This document shows, piece after piece, positions 3-15,505 of a stretch of 53,958 nucleotides of DNA. The stretch is from Minisyncoccota bacterium (GTDB lineage Bacteria > Patescibacteriota > Minisyncoccia > Phycocordibacterales > PALSA-1337). Below the pieces are notes generated by a model. The model searched no databases and was not told the DNA's origin. It saw only the letters and a list, made by a program, of their open reading frames with translations. The stretch's first letter is position 1. Every line of letters begins with the position of its first letter. The translations under genes were made by a program, and so were the position numbers. Location of the stretch: assembly GCA_035495115.1 (NCBI GenBank), contig DATJGJ010000014.1, positions 1 to 53,958 on the forward strand, read 5' to 3'.

Positions 3-71
3 GAATGGTTCGATGGAAAAAAGTGGTCAGATGATCTCGAAGAAGTGAAGAAAATACTCGTGAAGAAATAG
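3..71 (+). CDS. 3' end of an unidentified ORF entering the window (...EWFDGKKWSDDLEEVKKILVKK*)
   Basis: Open frame from position 3 to TAG at 69-71, followed by the -10 box of the next gene. Confidence 0.5.
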   Translation, partial: EWFDGKKWSDDLEEVKKILVKK

Positions 72-94: not shown

Positions 95-1489
95 ATGAAT
101 CTTCCTAAACACGTCCACGTCATCGGCATCTGCGGCGTAGCGACCAGCGCGCTCGCTATCGCTTTTCATAAGGCTGGCGTCAAAGTGACCGGCTCAGATA
201 AAGGGTTCTTTCCTCCGGTTTCGACTGAGCTTGAGAAACAAGGGATTACCTTCTACGCCGGTTGGCACCCTGAGAAAATGGTAGCAGATGGTATCCCTGA
301 TCTCGTAGTCATTACCACTGCTTCAGGCACGCAAAATCCCGAAACAATATACGCGAGAGAAAATAATATCCCATCTCTCGGATATACCGAAGTATTCGGC
401 AAGTATTTCATAAAAGAAAAATCAATCGTATGCACTGGCACCTGGGGCAAAACATCATCGAGCGCCCTCTTGTCACACATATTAGAGCAAGCGCACCTAG
501 ATCCAAGCTACATGTTCGGAGGCGTATCCTTATCGCACGAATCATCCGCAAAGATAACCGATAGCGAATGGAGCGTCTTTGAAGGAGATGAATACAAGAG
601 CTCGCCTACAGATCCCACCGCAAAATTCTTTTACTATAAACCAACCCATCTTTTGCTCAGTGCCATATCTTGGGACCATGCCGATCTATACCCAACGGAA
701 GAAAGCTATTTTGACGCATTCAAAAAACTAACTTCTAACATTCCTGAGACTGGGCTGATCGTTGCCAATATGCAACATACTGGGGTTGAAAAGACTCTCC
801 GTGGCTCTACAAAGAAAATCGTCTCCTATGGCTTAATCGGCAGCGATTATTCATATTCAGATATATCACAAACAAAAGATGGGTTGTCTTTTGTGATCAC
901 TCATGCGGAAAAAACGTACAAAATCACTTCGCCGATGCTTGGCTCATTCCAGGCAGAAAATATCACTGGGTGTTTTGCTATGGCACATAACATTGGCATC
1001 ACACCAGAAAAAATAATATCGTCAATCGCAACATTTGCCGGCCTCAAGCGCCGTCTAGAAAAAAGAGTGTCCGGTGATATCACTGTTTTCGACGACATCG
1101 CTCACTCTCCAGAAAAGGCCTCTTCAGTCTTAAAAAACCTTCGCGAAATATATACTGGAAAAATTATCGCAATATTTGAACCAAATATTGGCGGACGAGA
1201 ACGTGAATCGGCTTACAAATACGACAATGCCTTTAAAGATGCAGATACGGTTGTCATTCCTCGTCTAACTAAACTCAAAGTCGCAGAAAATGCCGTTGAA
1301 GTACCCATGGATGGAAAAGAGTTATCGGAGACTATTCAGAAGACCCATAAAAACATCAATTACATGGAAGACGACTCTGCTCTCGTCGATTTTCTCGTTG
1401 CAACAGCAAAAAAAGACGACTGTATCGTCTTTCTTGGGTCACATGGTTTCAGAGGAATGATTGAGGAAACAGTAAAGAAGCTCAGCTAG
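95..1489 (+). CDS. Mur ligase, Mpl/MurC-like
   Basis: N-terminal GICGVAT Rossmann motif, GSD, P-loop GTWGKTS, EGDEY, WDHADLY, DDIAHSP; several substrate-pocket residues are non-canonical. Confidence 0.85.
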   Translation: MNLPKHVHVIGICGVATSALAIAFHKAGVKVTGSDKGFFPPVSTELEKQGITFYAGWHPEKMVADGIPDLVVITTASGTQNPETIYARENNIPSLGYTEVFGKYFIKEKSIVCTGTWGKTSSSALLSHILEQAHLDPSYMFGGVSLSHESSAKITDSEWSVFEGDEYKSSPTDPTAKFFYYKPTHLLLSAISWDHADLYPTEESYFDAFKKLTSNIPETGLIVANMQHTGVEKTLRGSTKKIVSYGLIGSDYSYSDISQTKDGLSFVITHAEKTYKITSPMLGSFQAENITGCFAMAHNIGITPEKIISSIATFAGLKRRLEKRVSGDITVFDDIAHSPEKASSVLKNLREIYTGKIIAIFEPNIGGRERESAYKYDNAFKDADTVVIPRLTKLKVAENAVEVPMDGKELSETIQKTHKNINYMEDDSALVDFLVATAKKDDCIVFLGSHGFRGMIEETVKKLS

Positions 1490-1491
1490 GC

Positions 1492-1665
1492 TTATTTTCC
1501 CTCATCTACAATTTCCGCCTTTACTTCGCCATTATCAGCAATCTCTTTGATAGCAAGCGTCATACCGCAATGGTTACACTCAACGACCATACCTACTGCA
1601 AGGTTCGGATAGCGCGACAAATCAACGTCATTTTTGCATTCTGGGCACACGAGTTTCGTATTCAT
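1492..1665 (-). CDS. LysW-like zinc-ribbon protein, 57 aa (possible carrier protein), ending in ...DEGK
   Basis: CPECK...VVECNHCGMTLAI pattern resembles LysW; start moved to the ATG at 1665; lacks the EDWGE C-terminus. Confidence 0.65.
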   Translation of the reverse strand: MNTKLVCPECKNDVDLSRYPNLAVGMVVECNHCGMTLAIKEIADNGEVKAEIVDEGK

Positions 1666-1766
1666 AGTTTTTAAATCTTGATGGAACATAGATGATAAAT
1701 ACAGCTTCATGTATTCGAGGCTGTCTTTCCATAGTACTTGAAATACGATAGTATGACAATACTTTC

Positions 1767-2687
1767 ATGCAAACTCCCCTCGAACAATACAGCGACCTGG
1801 CGCAGGCTATCGGCGTCACCGACCTCTATTTCAAGCGCGAAGATCTGAGTCCCTACGGCTCGCACAAAGGCAGATCGATACCGGTTATGATCGAGGTATA
1901 CCGCAACCAAGGAGAAAGCCGTTTCGCCATTTCTTCATCTGGAAATGCAGCTCTCGCTGCTGCTATACACATCCAGAAGCACAACCAAGATAAAGTAGAA
2001 AAAGGGATGCGCGAAGCTGGGGGCGATATCATAGATAATTCGCTGTTACAATTGGATATTTTTGTTGGAAACCATATCTCTGAGCATAAATATAAAAAGC
2101 TCCTCGCATATGCCGATGACAATATACGCATCCTCAAAAAAGAGCGCCCTTTGCAAGCACTTACTCAAGCGATGAATGAAGGTATGCGCAGCCTGCGCCA
2201 ATCGACCGATGATCTCGCTCTCAAAGGATACGAATCGCTCGCCGAAGAACTTAGTCTGATCAAAAACCTCGGAGCAGTATTCATTGGCACCTCATCAGGC
2301 ACGACCGCTCAAGCACTTGCCGCATATTTTCTAAATAATGCTGACTCGAAAATCCCTCAGATACATATAGTGCAAACATCTTCGTGCCACCCACTCTCTG
2401 ATGGACTGAACAGTTATGACGGGCCAGACGAGGTATCAGTCGCCGACGCAATCACCGATATTACCGCTTATAGAAAAAATGACCTCATCCCTCTCATTCA
2501 AAAGACGGGTGGGTCAGGTTGGTTCGCTACCAATGAGAATATTGAAGCCGCAGTCATGCTCACAAAAAAACACACTGGCGTAGATATATCAGCCAACAGC
2601 GCACTTTCTGTCGCCGGTGTAATGCAAGCTGCCTATGCGGGACACAATTTTGATGGACCAGTTGTGTGTCTGATTTGCGGCGAGTAG
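1767..2687 (+). CDS. PLP-dependent fold-type II enzyme (threonine synthase/cysteine synthase-like)
   Basis: LYFKREDLSPYGSHKGR (PLP lysine), SSGNAA, GTSSGTT phosphate loop. Confidence 0.85.
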   Translation: MQTPLEQYSDLAQAIGVTDLYFKREDLSPYGSHKGRSIPVMIEVYRNQGESRFAISSSGNAALAAAIHIQKHNQDKVEKGMREAGGDIIDNSLLQLDIFVGNHISEHKYKKLLAYADDNIRILKKERPLQALTQAMNEGMRSLRQSTDDLALKGYESLAEELSLIKNLGAVFIGTSSGTTAQALAAYFLNNADSKIPQIHIVQTSSCHPLSDGLNSYDGPDEVSVADAITDITAYRKNDLIPLIQKTGGSGWFATNENIEAAVMLTKKHTGVDISANSALSVAGVMQAAYAGHNFDGPVVCLICGE

Positions 2688-4025
2688 CTACAATCCCCTC
2701 ACTGCTCTTACAAATACTTCACCTCGCTCTTTTCTCGACGCTTCAATCCCGCATGCGGCAAATCCAGGACTAAAGAGTATCTTATCTCCTTGTCGCGCAT
2801 TGTCTCGTGCAAGGCGCACTGCTTCAGCGATATCAGGCGCGGAGATGATTTTTATCGTATCGAGCGCATTGAGTAATTTGCGCTCTTTCATAGTACCGCT
2901 CCCCGGCAGCAGAATAACGGTATGAGCGCATTCCGGCAATAATCGATACAGCTCGGTATAATCGCAATCACGATCAGCACCACCGAGAATGAGCACGATA
3001 TTTCGATCCTTTGCTATCGAACGCATGCCCACGATCGTCGATTCGGGCGAAATCGAAGCGGTATCGTTGTAAAATTCAATGTTTTTAATTTTTTTGACGA
3101 GCTCCAGCCTACCTTTGAGCGGCTTCCATTTTTCCATGATCGTCTCTGATACTTCATCAGGTACTTTGAAGAGCTGCGCTGCCTGGAGCGCAAGAGAAGC
3201 ATTGTCTTTGTCATGATTCCATAGACTGCCTCCGTTCAAATCAGCGCCAAATACCCATGATGCGGGGATGATAGATGGTTTAGTGCGCAACATCTTTGCT
3301 TTCGGTTGAAATTTAAATGTATGGATAGCGTCGATGACTTCATCGCTCGCAATGATAAAGTTATTGTACGTCTGATAGGTCAATATCTCGAATGGCGATG
3401 TGCTGTATGATCCTTTCGGTGGCACCGTAGTGAAGATGGCCACGTGAGGACTGACGCGCATCTCGTAGAATTCAGGCATCATCTGTTCGATGATGCGGAT
3501 GAGAGCGATATCGCCGCTTTTTATCTTTTTGAGAGCGACGAGTATGCCGTCGCCTGATTCAGGATCGAGCGTGAACATGCTCTGAGTACCATCTGCATCG
3601 CACGCTGCCTCGAGAAGAGGAGCAAGGAGAGAAGTGACAGTCGTCTTGCCGCATGAGCCGATAACACCGACGACTGTTACTGGTGGTGCAAGCCTGAAAA
3701 AGAGCGTCTCAGGATACTCGATCTGTATGCCCTTTTCCCGAGCCGCCTTGAGAAAGGATGAGTCACGAGGATATTCATGCGAAAGGATGATGAGATCCAT
3801 GTCGAGCAGATCATCAGCTGGTATCGAGCTGCATACATAGTTGGCGAGTCCTACCGAACGGAGGAATACGATATGATTTTTGAGGCGCGCTTCGCTTCGA
3901 AGATCATAGACTGAGACGAGAGCATCGGCTTTTATGAGGAATTTCACATCATCTACCATCTCGCCGTGAGGACCGAGACCTATGACTGCGATGCGCTTTC
4001 CTTGGAAATAGGTTCGGGTGTTCAT
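2688..4025 (-). CDS. MurD-like ligase with degenerate active-site motifs
   Basis: IAVIGLG, EYPETLF, P-loop GSCGKTT, GRLE, FYND, LILGG, LFSPG, ERGEVF. Confidence 0.75.
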   Translation of the reverse strand: MNTRTYFQGKRIAVIGLGPHGEMVDDVKFLIKADALVSVYDLRSEARLKNHIVFLRSVGLANYVCSSIPADDLLDMDLIILSHEYPRDSSFLKAAREKGIQIEYPETLFFRLAPPVTVVGVIGSCGKTTVTSLLAPLLEAACDADGTQSMFTLDPESGDGILVALKKIKSGDIALIRIIEQMMPEFYEMRVSPHVAIFTTVPPKGSYSTSPFEILTYQTYNNFIIASDEVIDAIHTFKFQPKAKMLRTKPSIIPASWVFGADLNGGSLWNHDKDNASLALQAAQLFKVPDEVSETIMEKWKPLKGRLELVKKIKNIEFYNDTASISPESTIVGMRSIAKDRNIVLILGGADRDCDYTELYRLLPECAHTVILLPGSGTMKERKLLNALDTIKIISAPDIAEAVRLARDNARQGDKILFSPGFAACGIEASRKERGEVFVRAVRGL

Positions 4026-4083
4026 GGGGGTATTATAGCGTCAAGCGAACCTCTATGACAATTTATTGGCATAAGAGGCGAGC

Positions 4084-4113
4084 GCCGACGATATATGAAC
4101 TTAGTGAATATGG
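4084..4113. repeat. 30-nt dispersed repeat, copy 1 (copy 2 at 33462-33491)
   Basis: gccgacgatatatgaacttagtgaatatgg vs gcagacgatatatgagcgcagcgaatatag, 24/30 identical. Confidence 0.6.
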
Positions 4114-4142
4114 TGGCAAGTAAGACAAACTTTTATAACAAT

Positions 4143-4173
4143 AAAAAAGAGACCCCAGTAAAGAGGTCTCTTT
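4143..4173 (-). terminator. Rho-independent terminator after the 4193-5584 gene
   Basis: aaagagacc/ggtctcttt stem with a U-run on the minus strand. Confidence 0.65.
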
Positions 4174-4192
4174 GTGAAAGAAATGCTGCGAA

Positions 4193-5584
4193 TTACTTCG
4201 CGACAGTTTCCTGTGCTTCGTGAGACGGAGCCGTTGCTGGCGTAGGTTCAAAAGTTAGCCCCATAGTCGCATCCGGCTTTTGGGCCTGAGCCTCTTCTTG
4301 TGCCTTCTTGAACCCTTCCGGATTGATGATGATGTGACGCTCACTGCACCACATCTTGACATACCGCGGGTGCAGGCTGTATTTAATGGCCTTCACGATC
4401 GCATCAACCGGGAGCTGTGTCGGCGGAGCCGATATGGTCTGACTACCGTTGAACAGCTGTTCACCCTTCTTGAAGTAATACCAGTGCGCCAGGCTCGAGT
4501 GAGCATGAGCACCAGGAACACCAAGATCGAACCAGCTGACCGAACCCTTCGCTTTGACCGGCAACTCGAGCCAACGAATCATCCGAACCGCATTCGAGAG
4601 GTTGAGGCCTGGGATCCGCGTATCAACGCAGACCATAACATTACCCTTCGTATTACGGACAACGACGATGTCAGCACCGGCATACCGAGCCGCACGATGA
4701 GCCTGGAGGTTGTCGCTTTCGACGACCATGAGCTTGATCCAACGATCTTTGCCGCGCTGGTCGATCATGATCACCTCCACCATCTTTTTACCCTTGAACT
4801 GGTCAACGAGTTTCCAGAACTCGATCTGATCACCTGACATCTGAATGAGCGGCGTTTCGAGCCAGCTCATAATGTCGCTTCCAGAGCGAGAGAAGTGATA
4901 GAGCGCTTTCACGATGTAGCCGAGCTCAGTCACGCGCCCTTCCGATGCCTTCATGCTCTCATGCATGATCCGGAACATGTGCTCGCGAACCCGCTTGTCT
5001 GCACTAAAGTGCGATTTCAGGTATTGCTCGTCAACGTCCATCAGTTTGAGATGGTCAATCAACGTCTTTTCGCCAGGAACGCCGGCGAAATGATACTGCT
5101 GGTCCCAGATGATGGCTTGGATCGCAAGCATCGCCCATTTGATGACCCCTTGATCATTACCCTTCATCGAACGATTGCACACCTTGACTAGGTCAGCCAA
5201 TTGCGTTGGCGAGCACCCTGCCTTGGTATCGCATTCGAGGACTTCAGCGATGAGCTGTTTGATTTCATTCGGCACACAGTCAGGCCAGAGGAATGCAGCA
5301 ACGAGGGTCGTTGCACATTGTCCCTTGATTCGTTCGATGCCCGAGCGATGCTCATTGAAACGACAATTTTCACCGCAACCGATCGGCAGGATGCCGTTAC
5401 GGTCATGTTCTTCTTCGGATCCCGAGATGTCCTTATCCACGAAGCGGATATAGGCGTTGAGTCCGCCATAGACCATCAGGAGATAATACGCCAGGATTTC
5501 ATCGAGATGAGGCGATTTATGCATCACTACCATCTTGATTCCCGCGATCAGTTTAGCCGACTTTTCATTCAGTGTTATTTTCAC
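4193..5584 (-). CDS. Hypothetical protein, possible MYG1/DHH-like metal-dependent phosphoesterase fold
   Basis: N-terminal HKSPHLDE, IGCG..RFNEH, CATTLV; GTG start; 463 aa open frame. Confidence 0.5.
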   Translation of the reverse strand: MKITLNEKSAKLIAGIKMVVMHKSPHLDEILAYYLLMVYGGLNAYIRFVDKDISGSEEEHDRNGILPIGCGENCRFNEHRSGIERIKGQCATTLVAAFLWPDCVPNEIKQLIAEVLECDTKAGCSPTQLADLVKVCNRSMKGNDQGVIKWAMLAIQAIIWDQQYHFAGVPGEKTLIDHLKLMDVDEQYLKSHFSADKRVREHMFRIMHESMKASEGRVTELGYIVKALYHFSRSGSDIMSWLETPLIQMSGDQIEFWKLVDQFKGKKMVEVIMIDQRGKDRWIKLMVVESDNLQAHRAARYAGADIVVVRNTKGNVMVCVDTRIPGLNLSNAVRMIRWLELPVKAKGSVSWFDLGVPGAHAHSSLAHWYYFKKGEQLFNGSQTISAPPTQLPVDAIVKAIKYSLHPRYVKMWCSERHIIINPEGFKKAQEEAQAQKPDATMGLTFEPTPATAPSHEAQETVAK

Positions 5585-5689: not shown

Positions 5690-6007
5690 TCAGCTTAAAG
5701 TCAATATCTTTTTAACCTTAATGAGCTCCTGCAAAATAGCCTGTAATTTAAGCTCTTCTTCGGGTGAGAATGATTTTTCAGCTATAAATTGGCCCATTTT
5801 TCTCATAAACAGCCCGTAGAGGTCATTGTAGTATTCATTCACTATTTTCCTGTTTTCAGGCTTATCTAAATCGTGAATCTGCTCGCTTCTCGGCTTATCG
5901 AATACCCTCATAATCTCTGTGGGGCGTTGTACCCCTTCATAGGTAACGCTCTCGTGATACAAAATACCATCAAGCGATGGTGATGTGATGCTATAGTCTC
6001 GATACAT
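5690..6007 (-). CDS. Hypothetical protein, 105 aa
   Basis: ORF fills the gap downstream of radC on the same strand; protein-like composition. Confidence 0.55.
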   Translation of the reverse strand: MYRDYSITSPSLDGILYHESVTYEGVQRPTEIMRVFDKPRSEQIHDLDKPENRKIVNEYYNDLYGLFMRKMGQFIAEKSFSPEEELKLQAILQELIKVKKILTLS

Positions 6008-12555: not shown

Positions 12556-13116
12556 TTACTGATGTACCACATCATAGCGAAGTATCACAGCACCATTCTG
12601 GAAAGGTCTTGATTCACGTAATGTTAAATTACGCTGCTTGTTTGCATCAGTGAACAAATGTCGTCCTTTTCCCAAAATAGTTGGAGCAACGCATAGGCGA
12701 ATCTCATCGAAAAGCCCCGCATTCATCAATGACACAGACAATGTGCCACTGCCGAAAACGTACAGAGGACCACCCTCCTCTTGTTTGAGGCGCTGTATAT
12801 CGCTGACTGCATCACGAACGATGGTTGTATTGTTCCATTCAGCCTTCTCTCGCGTTCGCGAACAAACGATCTTCGCTATACTGTTCATGATCGGCGCTAC
12901 CTGCGGGTCTGTAGCATCAGCACCCGACCAGTATTCGGCCATGCCTTTGTATGTATTTTCACCGAAGACAAGCACACTTGCCTCTGATAGCTGAGTGAGA
13001 ATCAGGGCTTCGAGCTCAGGTCCCCATACGAGCTGATGGAACGAGAGATCCCACGGCTTCTCTCCTTCAAAACAACCATCGAGAGTCACCACATTCCACA
13101 TAATAAGTTTTCTCAT
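12556..13116 (-). CDS. Dihydrofolate reductase family (RibD C-terminal-like) protein
   Basis: MRKLIMWNVVTLDG, FGENTY, VFGSGTL, GLFDEIRL..P.ILGKG. Confidence 0.88.
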   Translation of the reverse strand: MRKLIMWNVVTLDGCFEGEKPWDLSFHQLVWGPELEALILTQLSEASVLVFGENTYKGMAEYWSGADATDPQVAPIMNSIAKIVCSRTREKAEWNNTTIVRDAVSDIQRLKQEEGGPLYVFGSGTLSVSLMNAGLFDEIRLCVAPTILGKGRHLFTDANKQRNLTLRESRPFQNGAVILRYDVVHQ

Positions 13117-13165
13117 ATATGTATATTAATTGAAAAAAGAAGAAGGGGCAAACAATGCTTCACGG

Positions 13166-15505
13166 TCAAGCCAACCTCGCATACGCCTGCTTGGCCAGCT
13201 CAGAGACCTGCATCCAAAAGAATGACCAGACCCAGACAAGGATGATGAGCGACAACGATATGGGCGCTGTCAGGAAGCCGGTAAATGCCAAGGCTGTGGC
13301 AATCAATTGAGTCGTAACTGTGGCAAAGATGACTTGCTTGCTCGGCAGATATTTGAACCATGCATCTTTGGTATGAGCGACATAAACAAGCATATGACCG
13401 GAGACAGTGAGCTTAAGGAAGAACATTGTCTGGATCAAAGGCCACGGCAAATGCAACCAAGCAACCATGATGTAGAGCAGAATAAGACTATTGGCGACGC
13501 CTGTGAGACCAAAGAGCGTACTTAGAGTGAAGCGCTTTTTTGCATCGATATGCGCAGGTTTTTCCGTGGCTTTGACACGATCAAAGGCGAGTGAGATGAT
13601 CGGTACATCATTCAGGAACGCTAATATAATGAGCTGGACCGGCGTCAGTGGATAGGTTTTGAAGATAAGACCGATGACAGCGATAGTGATGATGAGTCGA
13701 AAGCTTTCGGATATACGATAGAGCGAATAGTTGTACAAACGAGCAAAGATATCACGGGCTTCGATGATAGCATCTTTTATGACTGCGATACCGTTCTTCA
13801 ACAACACTATATCAGCCGCACCTTTTAGTGCATCGACTGCCGTAGAAACAGCAAAACCAACATCAGCATTTTTCACAGCTGGCAGGTCGTTGACTCCGTC
13901 GCCAGTCATAGCCACAACATGATGGGCGCGTGCGAGCGAGACTATCTCGTACTTATCTTTTGGCAACACTTCAGCAAAACCACCGATTGAATCGAATCGT
14001 TCTTTCAAAACGACTGCATCGCCGTCCAAAACGCCTCTAGCCACAACATCTCCCTTGATACCGAGTTCACCAGCAATACGCTCACTGATAGCGAGACTAT
14101 CACCCGTGATCATTTTCACTCCGATGCCATTCTGAGACATAAACTCTACTGTTGACTTGGCATCAACATGAAGGCTGTCAGCCAGAAAGAGAATGCCGAC
14201 GAGCGTCATGTTCTTTTCTTCACTGCCCTCTCGGTTGATAGCTATGGCTATGGCCCGATAGCCCCCGTCGGCCCCCTTTTGAACAGCCTCATCAAATCTC
14301 TTTCGATTGTCGACATCCAAAGCGCACAATGACGCAATGATCTGTGGTGCACCAGATGAGATAGCGGACTCTTTGCCGTCTATGGAGACGACAACAGTGC
14401 TTCGTTTCCTCTCCGAATCTCCTGGAGTGTAATCGATAGGAGGGTACGGCTTAATAGACAATGCCTGTGCTTTTTTGAAGATAGCGTCATCAAGCGGATT
14501 GTCGTGCGATTCTGAAACAGCGCTAACCGCATACAGCGCAACATCATGCTCCGTAAAATTATCGAAGGAAATAATACGCTCCACTTTGATGGTGTTTTGA
14601 GTGAGCGTGCCTGTCTTATCAGAAAGTAGCAGGTTAACATTAGCCAGATCTTCGAGAGATGCCAGCCTCCTGACAATCACTTGTTTTTTTGCGAGATTTA
14701 GAATGCCGATCGAGATGATAAGGCTCATAACTGTTGGCAAAGCTACTGGAATACCGGCGATGAGGAGAGAAAGATCGAGTGTAACTACGTCAGTCAATGC
14801 AGAGTGGGTGAAAAGAAGCACTGCGGTCAAAACGATCACAATGAATATGCTTATGATGGAGATGAATTTTGAAACGGACAGTATGTCTTTCTCAAGGGAG
14901 CTTTGACGAGGCTTTACGTCAACAGAGACAATCGTCTTACCAAAAAAAGTGGAGGCGCCAGTCGCAGTCACTGTACCGATGCCATTGCCCGTTGTCACAT
15001 ATGATCCTGAATATGAAATGTCGCCAGCCTTTTTTTCCTTTGGCAAAGATTCGCCAGTGAGAACAGACTCATTGATGGAAAGGTTTTTTGACTCGAGGAT
15101 GGAAATATCGGCTGGCACAACTGCGCCAATCTTGAGCATGATCACATCCCCTTCTACTAGACCGACTGAGTCGATGAGCGTCCACGCTCCATCACGGAAT
15201 ACCGGCACCTTGACGGCAAGATGCGCTTGGAGCTGTTTGATCGATTTGTCTGCCTTTCTTTCATGCCACATACCGATGGCAGAGTTGGATACAAACAAGA
15301 ATAAGATAATCCAAAAATTAACGTCATTGCCGCTGTATAAAGACAGAAAAGCAGCCGCGAGAAGCATGAGCGGTATGAGGGAAAACAAATTCTTTGCAAC
15401 AACAAGGAATAGGTTCTTCTTTTTCTCAGGAAGGCTGTTTGGGCCGTTCCTTTGGAGCATGAGGGATGCTTGTTGTGATGTAAGTCCCAGGTATTTTGTA
15501 GTCAT
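13166..15505 (-). CDS. P-type ATPase, probable type IIIA plasma-membrane H+-efflux ATPase
   Basis: LTGESLP, IPVALP, DKTGTLT, MITGD, TGDGVNDLPA, ND.PIISLAFD; start at ATG 15505. Confidence 0.9.
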   Translation of the reverse strand: MTTKYLGLTSQQASLMLQRNGPNSLPEKKKNLFLVVAKNLFSLIPLMLLAAAFLSLYSGNDVNFWIILFLFVSNSAIGMWHERKADKSIKQLQAHLAVKVPVFRDGAWTLIDSVGLVEGDVIMLKIGAVVPADISILESKNLSINESVLTGESLPKEKKAGDISYSGSYVTTGNGIGTVTATGASTFFGKTIVSVDVKPRQSSLEKDILSVSKFISIISIFIVIVLTAVLLFTHSALTDVVTLDLSLLIAGIPVALPTVMSLIISIGILNLAKKQVIVRRLASLEDLANVNLLLSDKTGTLTQNTIKVERIISFDNFTEHDVALYAVSAVSESHDNPLDDAIFKKAQALSIKPYPPIDYTPGDSERKRSTVVVSIDGKESAISSGAPQIIASLCALDVDNRKRFDEAVQKGADGGYRAIAIAINREGSEEKNMTLVGILFLADSLHVDAKSTVEFMSQNGIGVKMITGDSLAISERIAGELGIKGDVVARGVLDGDAVVLKERFDSIGGFAEVLPKDKYEIVSLARAHHVVAMTGDGVNDLPAVKNADVGFAVSTAVDALKGAADIVLLKNGIAVIKDAIIEARDIFARLYNYSLYRISESFRLIITIAVIGLIFKTYPLTPVQLIILAFLNDVPIISLAFDRVKATEKPAHIDAKKRFTLSTLFGLTGVANSLILLYIMVAWLHLPWPLIQTMFFLKLTVSGHMLVYVAHTKDAWFKYLPSKQVIFATVTTQLIATALAFTGFLTAPISLSLIILVWVWSFFWMQVSELAKQAYARLA

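Follow-up and report, generated by a model that had tools for sequence, protein, structure and literature searches.

A LysW-like zinc ribbon ending in lysine and its conserved partners in Patescibacteria: a possible amine-presenting carrier for peptidoglycan precursor synthesis

What would a small zinc-ribbon protein that ends in lysine be doing beside a pyridoxal 5'-phosphate (PLP) enzyme and between two Mur ligases that depart from the canonical sequences? The question is raised by a 53,958-nt stretch (~54 kb; the window, below) of contig DATJGJ010000014.1 from a Minisyncoccota bacterium (assembly GCA_035495115.1), in which a set of four genes at positions 95–4025 encodes an Mpl/MurC-like ligase, a LysW-like zinc ribbon, a fold-type II PLP enzyme, and a MurD-like protein. 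A preliminary description, made from the letters of the sequence, had proposed that these genes form a carrier-protein-based route to an unusual wall or surface peptide, with the carrier possibly loaded by a Mur-type ligase; open reading frame (ORF) analysis and motif reading place all four genes and the quoted motifs where it had put them. In the current work, the concept of a carrier and the link to the cell wall both stand, while loading by a Mur-type ligase finds no support. The reading that we tentatively prefer, at somewhat short of an even chance, is that the small protein acts as a carrier of reversed polarity which is loaded by an ATP-grasp ligase, whose cargo is processed by the PLP enzyme and unloaded by an amidase, and which thereby supplies the position-2 (D-Glu) unit of peptidoglycan.

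The gene of the small protein lies at 1492..1710 on the minus strand, where the longest ORF would specify 72 aa and two internal starts would give 65 aa (MFHQ) or, most probably, 57 aa (MNTKL, from 1662). The segment upstream of MNTKL (MFHQDLKT, 1663–1710) recurs in many relatives annotated at 64–65 aa (M[FIY][HSQ]Q[ND]LKT), and more distant members of the family begin 2–10 residues before the first cysteine motif. The protein reads CPEC-x19-CNHC and terminates in EIVDEGK. Its resemblance to LysW at the level of family models is faint: Zn_ribbon_LysW (PF21344) scored 23.8 bits, below its Pfam cutoff of 27, the NCBIfam LysW model NF041070 scored 25.7 bits against a cutoff of 75, and a profile search of the PDB recovered LysW weakly (E = 0.2–0.4) and no better than other zinc ribbons; many relatives of the carrier have a precomputed PF21344 match. 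An AF2 (AlphaFold2) model of the small protein (pLDDT, the predicted local distance difference test, 86.8) was compared with the PDB by Foldseek, and the first six ranks were all occupied by LysW chains (TM, template modelling score, 0.59–0.70), derived from complexes with ArgX, LysZ, LysY, and LysX, with no other fold close. The small protein is thus predicted to have the LysW fold, as the preliminary description had supposed from the spacing of its cysteines.

The C-terminus is the most constant part of the comparison with relatives. A profile search across 1.8 billion representative proteins distinguished two tail types within the carrier family, …VDEGK and …IEEEK (the DEGK and EEEK types), and three family profiles matched 279, 575, and 1585 database proteins, with the named relatives all belonging to Patescibacteria (Taylorbacteria, Paceibacterota, Magasanikbacteria, Dojkabacteria, and Spechtbacteria). 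Every retrieved relative with two CxxC pairs ends in lysine (391/391), 262 of them in EGK and 119 in EEK, and members are acidic, their net charge averaging about −6. Among 26 genes of equal length, the first, second, and third positions of the last seven codons differ in 5%, 4%, and 54% of pairwise comparisons, respectively. Because variation is almost confined to the third codon position, the tail is held at the protein level; judged from these codons it is under strong purifying selection, and the small protein is a real gene. The terminal lysine reported at this single locus is shared by all of these retrieved relatives.

Which genes accompany this protein was examined in a clade scan that used one genome per species and found relatives in 325 species, from which 80 loci were kept; eleven distant Patescibacteria loci were read in addition, and the clade counts given here are corrected for contig ends. 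Within the clade the order is fixed, comprising PK, RadC, a 105-aa ORF, the MurD-like gene, the PLP enzyme (PALP domain), the carrier, the Mpl-like gene, an ATE/Bpt-like (aminoacyl-tRNA-protein transferase-like) gene, MraY, an NlpC/P60-like gene, and an ATP-grasp gene. The PALP gene is present in 72/73 loci, the Mpl-like gene in 70/71, the MurD-like gene in 68/70, the ATE-like gene in 63/65, MraY in 59/61, the NlpC/P60-like gene in 55/57, and the ATP-grasp gene in 50/53, and most of the apparent exceptions (L005, L010, L052, L077) can be traced to frameshifts or to scaffold gaps that contain runs of N. Two distant DEGK loci repeat this arrangement without the MurD-like gene and with the ATP-grasp protein fused to a NUDIX domain. 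In the Spechtbacteria locus L085, also of the DEGK type, the PALP gene, the carrier, and the Mpl-like gene are followed by a DgcN-like DUF1611 gene (3117–4253, minus strand; 195 bits against a cutoff of 480), which occupies the position of the ATE-like gene beside the Mpl-like gene; this contig ends 720 bases past the PLP gene, and an ATP-grasp and amidase in the EEEK-type position could lie off it. Four EEEK loci have the carrier next to a row of PALP, ATP-grasp, NlpC/P60, and MraY genes, a fifth (L088) has the same genes with two others inserted and mraY 3.5 kb away, and the Dojkabacteria locus L084, likewise of the EEEK type, has the carrier next to PALP, ATP-grasp, and NlpC/P60 genes with no wall gene or Mur ligase within 10 kb.

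By profile hidden Markov models, the PALP, ATP-grasp, and NlpC/P60-like proteins belong to the same families across these lineages, at 27–36% identity. The carrier and the PLP enzyme thus form the constant core, joined nearly always by the ATP-grasp protein and the amidase and usually located beside mraY, while linkage to the Mpl-like gene is limited to the DEGK lineages and linkage to the MurD-like gene to this clade. The four-gene unit of the preliminary description consequently holds for the carrier and the PLP enzyme, holds in part for the Mpl-like ligase (DEGK type only), and does not hold for the MurD-like protein outside the clade. With one exception, all the lineages examined show linkage to cell-wall precursor genes; mraY is no more than a few kb away in 10/11 distant loci as well as in the clade loci counted above, and in two EEEK loci the module sits between mraY and murG-ftsW, which is the place of murD in the canonical division and cell-wall cluster.

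This distribution bears on two alternatives. The module could make a product unrelated to the wall, such as a modified amino acid, a cofactor, or a secondary metabolite, with its wall neighbours a chance outcome of genome compaction; the Dojkabacteria locus, which keeps the four core genes away from any wall gene within 10 kb, is in keeping with this, as are the Streptomyces carrier-protein pathways, which make non-proteinogenic amino acids. We give this idea very little credence, however, since mraY recurs in 10/11 distant and 59/61 clade loci and the genomes of these bacteria are very small, with little secondary metabolism. The second alternative is that there is no covalent carrier, and that the zinc ribbon serves, in a structural or regulatory capacity, as partner to an ordinary PLP racemase or dehydratase acting on a free substrate, its wall synteny reflecting co-regulation. 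The weak similarity to LysW (PDB E = 0.2–0.4, with Pfam and NCBIfam scores below their cutoffs), the short predicted free tail, and the fact that the tightest linkage is a divergent pair with the PLP gene would all fit such a role, which we regard as unlikely but deserving of real weight. It accounts less well for an invariant terminal lysine within an E-x-K tail kept across ~30% sequence divergence, which points to a terminus that is chemically used, for the constant pairing with a ligase and an amidase, and for six best fold matches that are all LysW and include no other ribbon.

Where the ligase and the amidase of this genome would be found is indicated by the edge of the window. Bases 3..68 on the plus strand encode EWFDGKKWSDDLEEVKKILVKK followed by a stop codon, which matches the C-terminal end of the ATE-like protein whose gene precedes the Mpl-like gene in relatives; the window edge truncates this gene. 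Judging from this gene end, the window edge cuts a longer operon, and an ATP-grasp > NlpC/P60 > MraY > ATE-like > Mpl-like operon is almost certainly present immediately upstream. None of the window ORFs of at least 80 aa was matched by profiles built from the ATP-grasp, NlpC/P60-like, ATE-like, and MraY genes of relatives, and it is because both are expected just upstream that the ATP-grasp protein and the amidase were missed by the preliminary description.

The upstream genes were characterised on a close relative, locus L004. There, a 416-aa protein is an ATP-grasp_3 protein, a 259-aa protein matches NlpC/P60 at 22.8 bits, MraY scores 183.6 bits against a cutoff of 192, and the ATE-like protein is matched by arginyltransferase models (E = 7e-9), with PF04377 weak. 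The ATP-grasp protein retains the E-x-N motif and gives a confident three-domain model (pLDDT 90.7) whose nearest folds are PurK, biotin carboxylase, and amino-acid or peptide ligases; searched by sequence against the PDB, it returned only an uncharacterised ATP-grasp protein (E = 0.0015) and Ddl (E = 0.004). Orthology to LysX/RimK or to Ddl was considered and rejected on these weak sequence matches and on the fold neighbours. The NlpC/P60-like protein has an invariant cysteine (GIDCS) and two invariant histidines, shows no obvious N-terminal signal sequence, and may be described as a putative cytoplasmic cysteine amidase. Neither it nor the ATE-like protein had a significant sequence match in the PDB. 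In one relative, L082, a single 774-codon frame (13048–15369, minus strand) contains both the ATP-grasp region (residues 50–484) and the NlpC/P60-like region (511–755), and the MurD-like gene is missing between the 105-aa ORF and the PLP gene; this contig holds 10 N, and the fused frame or the missing gene may be an assembly artefact.

The two Mur ligases of the window are both non-canonical, as originally reported, and they differ in what they have kept. The Mpl-like protein (464 aa, 95..1489, plus strand) has all three Mur ligase domains, yet scores below the cutoffs of both murC (TIGR01082, 257 bits vs. 335) and mpl (TIGR01081, 224 vs. 389), and the PDB entry that it matches best is 3hn7, an Mpl structure. 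It shows GTWGKT, DDIAHSP, and FEPNIGG, and it retains the P-loop (GTWGKT), EGDEY, WDHAD, and RR motifs, of which GTWGKT, EGDEY, and WDHAD are conserved in 70 orthologues. A 7-residue loop that follows EGDEY is missing from MurC in the same alignments. The protein also fails as a MurC by its EPNIGGRE, where MurC has QPHTYSRT, in addition to its score; the L-Ala-binding residues of Haemophilus influenzae MurC are His376, Arg377, and Arg380, in a PH.YSR motif (PMC3060825). Measured against Mpl, it keeps GICG, the loop length, the D and KF of the loop, RR, and S-H-G-F, whereas TFM is changed and FAHH, EPRSNT, and AFFDKRSK have become IAHS, EPNIGG, and SSPTDPTAK, respectively. The residues of FAHH and EPRSNT are listed in the Mpl structure paper as candidates for peptide specificity (PMC3060825), and the Mpl-like family has a conserved motif of its own, EPNxGxR. 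By its sequence the protein appears to be a competent ligase with an unusual amine site.

The MurD-like protein (445 aa, 2688..4025, minus strand; MurD-like_N and Mur_ligase_C domains) has diverged in a different way. It scores 143 bits with murD (TIGR01087) against a cutoff of 212, has no match to the Mur_ligase_M Pfam domain, and can be aligned over its full length to MurD 3lk7 (E = 5e-24). The P-loop, the N- and C-terminal domains, and an SP..A...F..RG motif are retained. THLDYH, with the Mg-binding H183, is replaced by PKGSYS, AAK, with the carbamoylated K198, by QTY, and two motifs of the D-Glu site, DSKSTN and GGxDKG (K348 position), by DTASIS and GGADRD. Residue numbers here are those of Escherichia coli MurD, and a second alignment, made with an E. 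coli MurD sequence, gives the same result as that to 3lk7. The replacements are conserved in 68 orthologues, and the family has invariant motifs private to it (EYPET, QTYNN, AKMLRTK, and PGSGT), a pattern that suggests a protein under selection which is unlikely to form the canonical acyl phosphate. In a different lineage, the MurE gene adjacent to the module reaches 413 bits where its cutoff is 257, and general divergence in these bacteria therefore does not account for the deviations in the MurC- and MurD-like proteins.

Set against this background, the idea that a Mur-type ligase loads the carrier, joining either an amino acid to the alpha-carboxylate of the terminal lysine or an activated carboxylate to its epsilon-amine, and that the four window genes form the unit, now seems very unlikely. 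Mur ligases do add amines to activated carboxylates, the Mpl-like gene stands beside the carrier in 70/71 clade loci and in four further loci of the DEGK type, and its catalytic core is intact with an altered amine-substrate domain (EPNxGxR for EPRSNT). Against these points, the EEEK lineages keep the core with no Mpl/MurC-type ligase within 10 kb, the MurD-like gene is linked in this clade only and its product lacks the metal-binding histidine and the carbamoylated lysine, and the conserved ATP-grasp and amidase pair already offers a candidate loader and unloader. It is the PLP enzyme, the ATP-grasp protein, and the NlpC/P60-like amidase that are the constant partners across distant lineages.

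The PLP enzyme itself (306 aa, 1767..2687, plus strand) has a PALP domain (E = 5e-30) and satisfies the general features of fold II, with invariant residues that include the PLP lysine K34 (SHKGRS), SSGN, SSGT, and the Gly-rich loop. Its family profile matched ThrC (threonine synthase; 8e-22), serine dehydratase (2e-17), the aspartate racemase 5ybw (2e-16), and then serine racemases in the PDB, which places fold-II aspartate and serine racemases among its closest solved relatives, and it represents a distinct family about as far from threonine synthase as from serine dehydratase and the fold-II Asp/Ser racemases. ThrC models all scored far under their cutoffs (best 42 bits), and in the profile alignment the Arg of the ThrC NPYR motif, which we take to be the residue that binds the substrate phosphate, aligns with the nearly invariant Ala151 of the PLP family; the enzyme is therefore not a threonine synthase. 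The small protein was also considered as the detached N-terminal zinc ribbon of a ThrC-like enzyme, and this was rejected because the alignment with solved ThrC structures starts at about residue 30 and leaves no domain unaccounted for, because its fold matches LysW only, and because its tail is under selection.

How these parts could work together is suggested by LysW, whose C-terminal Glu offers its carboxyl group and which binds its cargo at this invariant terminal side chain; the epsilon-amine of the lysine would, by analogy, have the same function here. We infer, from the predicted LysW fold and the invariant lysine, from the partners that are conserved, from the proximity of mraY, and from the degenerate motifs of the MurD-like protein, a cycle in which the carrier presents this amine at the tip of an acidic zinc ribbon. 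The ATP-grasp ligase would covalently tether an acidic amino acid to it, most likely L-Glu through its gamma-carboxyl group, given that an amino acid tethered with its alpha-amino and alpha-carboxyl groups free must be held by a side-chain carboxyl and so be Glu or Asp. The PLP enzyme, which requires an alpha-amino acid head that is free, would then modify this head, most likely by inversion to the D form, and the amidase would cut the resulting gamma-D-glutamyl-lysine-type bond and regenerate the carrier; gamma-D-glutamyl-diamino-acid bonds are the classic substrates of the papain-like NlpC/P60 enzymes. The product would enter position 2 of the stem peptide, which is normally supplied by MurI plus MurD, and would at some stage be handed over to UDP-MurNAc. 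In this lineage it probably falls to the flanking Mpl-like ligase and the ATE-like, tRNA-dependent transferase to deal with the unit in its tethered or released form, and the MurD-like protein would be a catalytically degenerate remnant or an adaptor. D-Glu at position 2 is favoured as the product because the module occupies the murD slot, the MurD-like protein is degenerate, and an intact MurE is found elsewhere, and also because an ATE/Bpt-like gene stands between MraY and the Mpl-like gene here and a DgcN-like gene beside the Mpl-like gene in L085, both families being ones that acylate the alpha-amine of an acidic amino acid.

Several observations weigh against this carrier-based supply of D-Glu. 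The role of the small protein as a carrier is argued by analogy, and its AF2 model pairs residues 47–54 as a strand so that only about three residues (E-G-K) are free, whereas the flexible tail of LysW is far longer. The nearest solved relative of the PLP enzyme is a threonine synthase and not a racemase. No LysX/RimK protein appeared among the PDB sequence matches of the ATP-grasp protein or among its top 50 fold matches. At locus L090 (DEGK type) the carrier is accompanied by PALP, Mpl-like, ATE-like, and MraY genes, with neither ATP-grasp nor amidase within 10 kb. Finally, a plain racemase would suffice to make D-Glu, and the need for a tether is left unexplained.

A more complete version of the same scheme, to which we assign a low probability, would have the L-Ala-D-Glu dipeptide built on the carrier. 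After the ATP-grasp ligase had tied the gamma-carboxyl group of L-Glu to the terminal lysine and the PLP enzyme had epimerised it to D-Glu, the ATE/Bpt-like transferase, whose family recognises N-terminal acidic residues, would add L-Ala from Ala-tRNA. The Mpl-like ligase would join UDP-MurNAc to the dipeptide, and the NlpC/P60 amidase would cleave the gamma-D-Glu-Lys bond and release UDP-MurNAc-L-Ala-D-Glu for a canonical MurE. MurC, MurD, and MurI would all be bypassed, and the MurD-like protein would be a pseudo-enzyme remnant of the replaced pathway.

The acylated lysine of the carrier, its epsilon-amine and alpha-carboxylate both free, might instead mimic the L-Lys at position 3 of the stem peptide, in which case the module would carry out side-chain or cross-bridge chemistry, for example the addition of a D-Asp or D-Glu branch to the epsilon-amine of that lysine, and the small protein would be a surrogate acceptor, a primer, or a regulator and not a supplier of position 2. 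The D-aspartate ligase of Enterococcus is an ATP-grasp enzyme that acts on the epsilon-amine of lysine, the near structural relatives of the PLP enzyme include a fold-II aspartate racemase, and tRNA-dependent transferases of the branching type are always near (ATE-like here, FemAB in EEEK-type loci). This proposal leaves the murD-slot position and the degenerate MurD-like protein unexplained, and a protein that imitates a small-molecule acceptor has no obvious benefit; we therefore consider it improbable.

Peptidoglycan precursor synthesis (MurA–F and MraY) is a highly conserved and well-studied pathway and a major drug target, and the module described here is fixed in the division and cell-wall cluster across a large part of the Candidate Phyla Radiation, in places at the very site of murD. 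If position-2 supply from a protein carrier is correct, a carrier-protein step would be new to textbook wall biochemistry, the reported 'gaps' in the wall pathway of these bacteria would find an explanation, and the LysW carrier principle would be extended from a carboxyl-presenting to an amine-presenting tail. The components are soluble proteins of small size. The present locus comes from a lineage that has kept a degenerate MurD-like gene next to the module. We found no published description of the module in the literature on LysW, Mur ligases, Patescibacteria, carrier proteins, or peptidoglycan; it is widespread in Patescibacteria and, as far as that literature goes, undescribed.

Comparison with characterised systems helps to define what is shared and what is not. 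Taking as a reference LysW/ArgW with LysX/ArgX, LysZ, LysY, LysJ, and LysK of Thermus, Sulfolobus, and Thermococcus, together with the Streptomyces AmCP systems, the likeness lies in an acidic zinc ribbon of ~55 aa with the same predicted fold and a conserved C-terminal tail, and in an associated ATP-grasp ligase and hydrolase that are candidates for loading and unloading. Unlike those carriers, the present one ends in Lys in place of Glu (EDWGE type) and misses the cutoffs of the LysW models; its ATP-grasp protein is of the PurK/biotin carboxylase/amino-acid ligase type and not LysX/RimK; there is no kinase, reductase, or aminotransferase, the partners being a fold-II PLP enzyme and an NlpC/P60 amidase; and the context is the cell wall and not lysine or arginine synthesis. 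The remark in the preliminary description that the window contains no lysXZYJK genes holds for the window ORFs that were scanned, and no LysX/ArgX-type ATP-grasp, LysZ, LysY, LysJ, or LysK was found within 10 kb in the 91 related loci.

Non-canonical provision of D-Glu has a precedent in MurD2/MurL of Xanthomonas, where a ligase joins L-Glu to UDP-MurNAc-L-Ala and epimerisation follows while the residue is on the nucleotide. As proposed here, that system makes the position-2 D-Glu without a glutamate racemase acting on the free substrate and inverts a tethered residue. Its tether, however, is the UDP-MurNAc-peptide, its MurD2 is intact, and MurL is not a PLP enzyme, in contrast to the proposed protein tether, the PLP enzyme, and the degenerate MurD-like protein of this locus. 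With Mpl (3hn7; PMC3060825), the Mpl-like ligase has in common the GICG with which the UDP loop starts, EGDEY and the additional loop after it, DHAD, RR, and S-x-G-F near the C-terminus, and differs in that its gene is fixed in a biosynthetic operon beside mraY and is not a recycling gene.

Two further systems resemble the proposed chemistry. In glutathionylspermidine synthetase/amidase, an ATP-dependent amide ligase and a papain-like amidase (CHAP/NlpC-P60 type) make and break the same amide to an amine, and in L082 a ligase and an amidase likewise occur in a single reading frame; that enzyme, unlike the module, handles only small molecules, with no carrier, PLP enzyme, or wall context. Butirosin biosynthesis (BtrI/BtrJ/BtrK) combines a carrier, a gamma-glutamylating ATP-grasp enzyme, and a PLP enzyme that acts on the tethered residue, with a gamma-glutamyl handle, but it relies on the thioester of a phosphopantetheinyl acyl carrier protein and on a PLP decarboxylase of another fold, and it belongs to secondary metabolism.

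The layout of the locus is compact. The carrier and PLP genes are divergent and share a spacer of ~104 bp, in which a candidate carrier promoter lies at 1731..1759 on the minus strand (TTGTCA-17-TACTAT, 9/12, by consensus match only). The two ligase genes converge on this pair, with gaps of 2 nt (1489/1492) and 0 nt (2687/2688). No terminator was found within either convergent pair (Mpl-like/carrier and PLP enzyme/MurD-like), and since these abutting genes converge without one, antisense overlap between their transcripts must result. Following the next gene upstream, a 463-aa gene, the MurD-like gene has a terminator and a promoter to itself; a terminator-like hairpin at 4173–4146 on the minus strand precedes a strong promoter-like site just upstream of the MurD-like gene (4032..4061, minus strand; TTGTCA-18-TATAAT, 11/12). 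The stretch derives from a soil metagenome. The sequencing runs that contain it are DNA-type or unclassified only (soil and landfill metagenomes), and no RNA-class run was found among them as transcript evidence.

The 463-aa gene, which is DHH/MYG1-like (4193–5584, minus strand) and lies between the 105-aa ORF and the MurD-like gene, has no Pfam or NCBIfam match; it was considered as a member of the unit and rejected, being present in only 7/80 relatives, and is a lineage-specific insertion. The 105-aa ORF (5690–6007, minus strand) is kept between RadC and the MurD-like gene throughout the clade, with the conserved residues Y..SPSL.G...Y.G..RP; it matched no family and is absent from the distant loci. 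RadC (JAB) was likewise considered, as the unloading peptidase, and rejected, its adjacency being clade-specific and absent from all 11 distant loci. The remainder of the window carries Patescibacteria housekeeping genes, including CTP synthase, FtsEX, RF2, GatA, LigA, type IV pilus genes, TyrRS, and RecG, and Pfam scans of 26 larger window ORFs returned housekeeping genes only. There is no additional Mur ligase in the 54-kb window, nor within 10 kb of the module in the 80 clade loci.

Among the distant loci, two further associations were observed. The ATP-grasp–NUDIX fusions of the Magasanikbacteria type are located at 15122–16765 in L089 and 18118–19731 in L091 (both minus strand), and a separate NUDIX gene stands between the carrier and the Mpl-like gene in L089 (10216–10767), L090 (10216–10773), and L091 (10420–10992), an association that may point to a nucleotide-diphosphate substrate. 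The EEEK-type loci L086 and L092 each contain a DegT/DnrJ/EryC1-type aminotransferase gene (3476–4732 and 3373–4659, respectively, plus strand), which, together with alpha/beta hydrolase and FemAB genes, lies between two MurE/MurF-like ligases adjoining the module; these extra genes suggest further non-standard stem-peptide or sugar chemistry.

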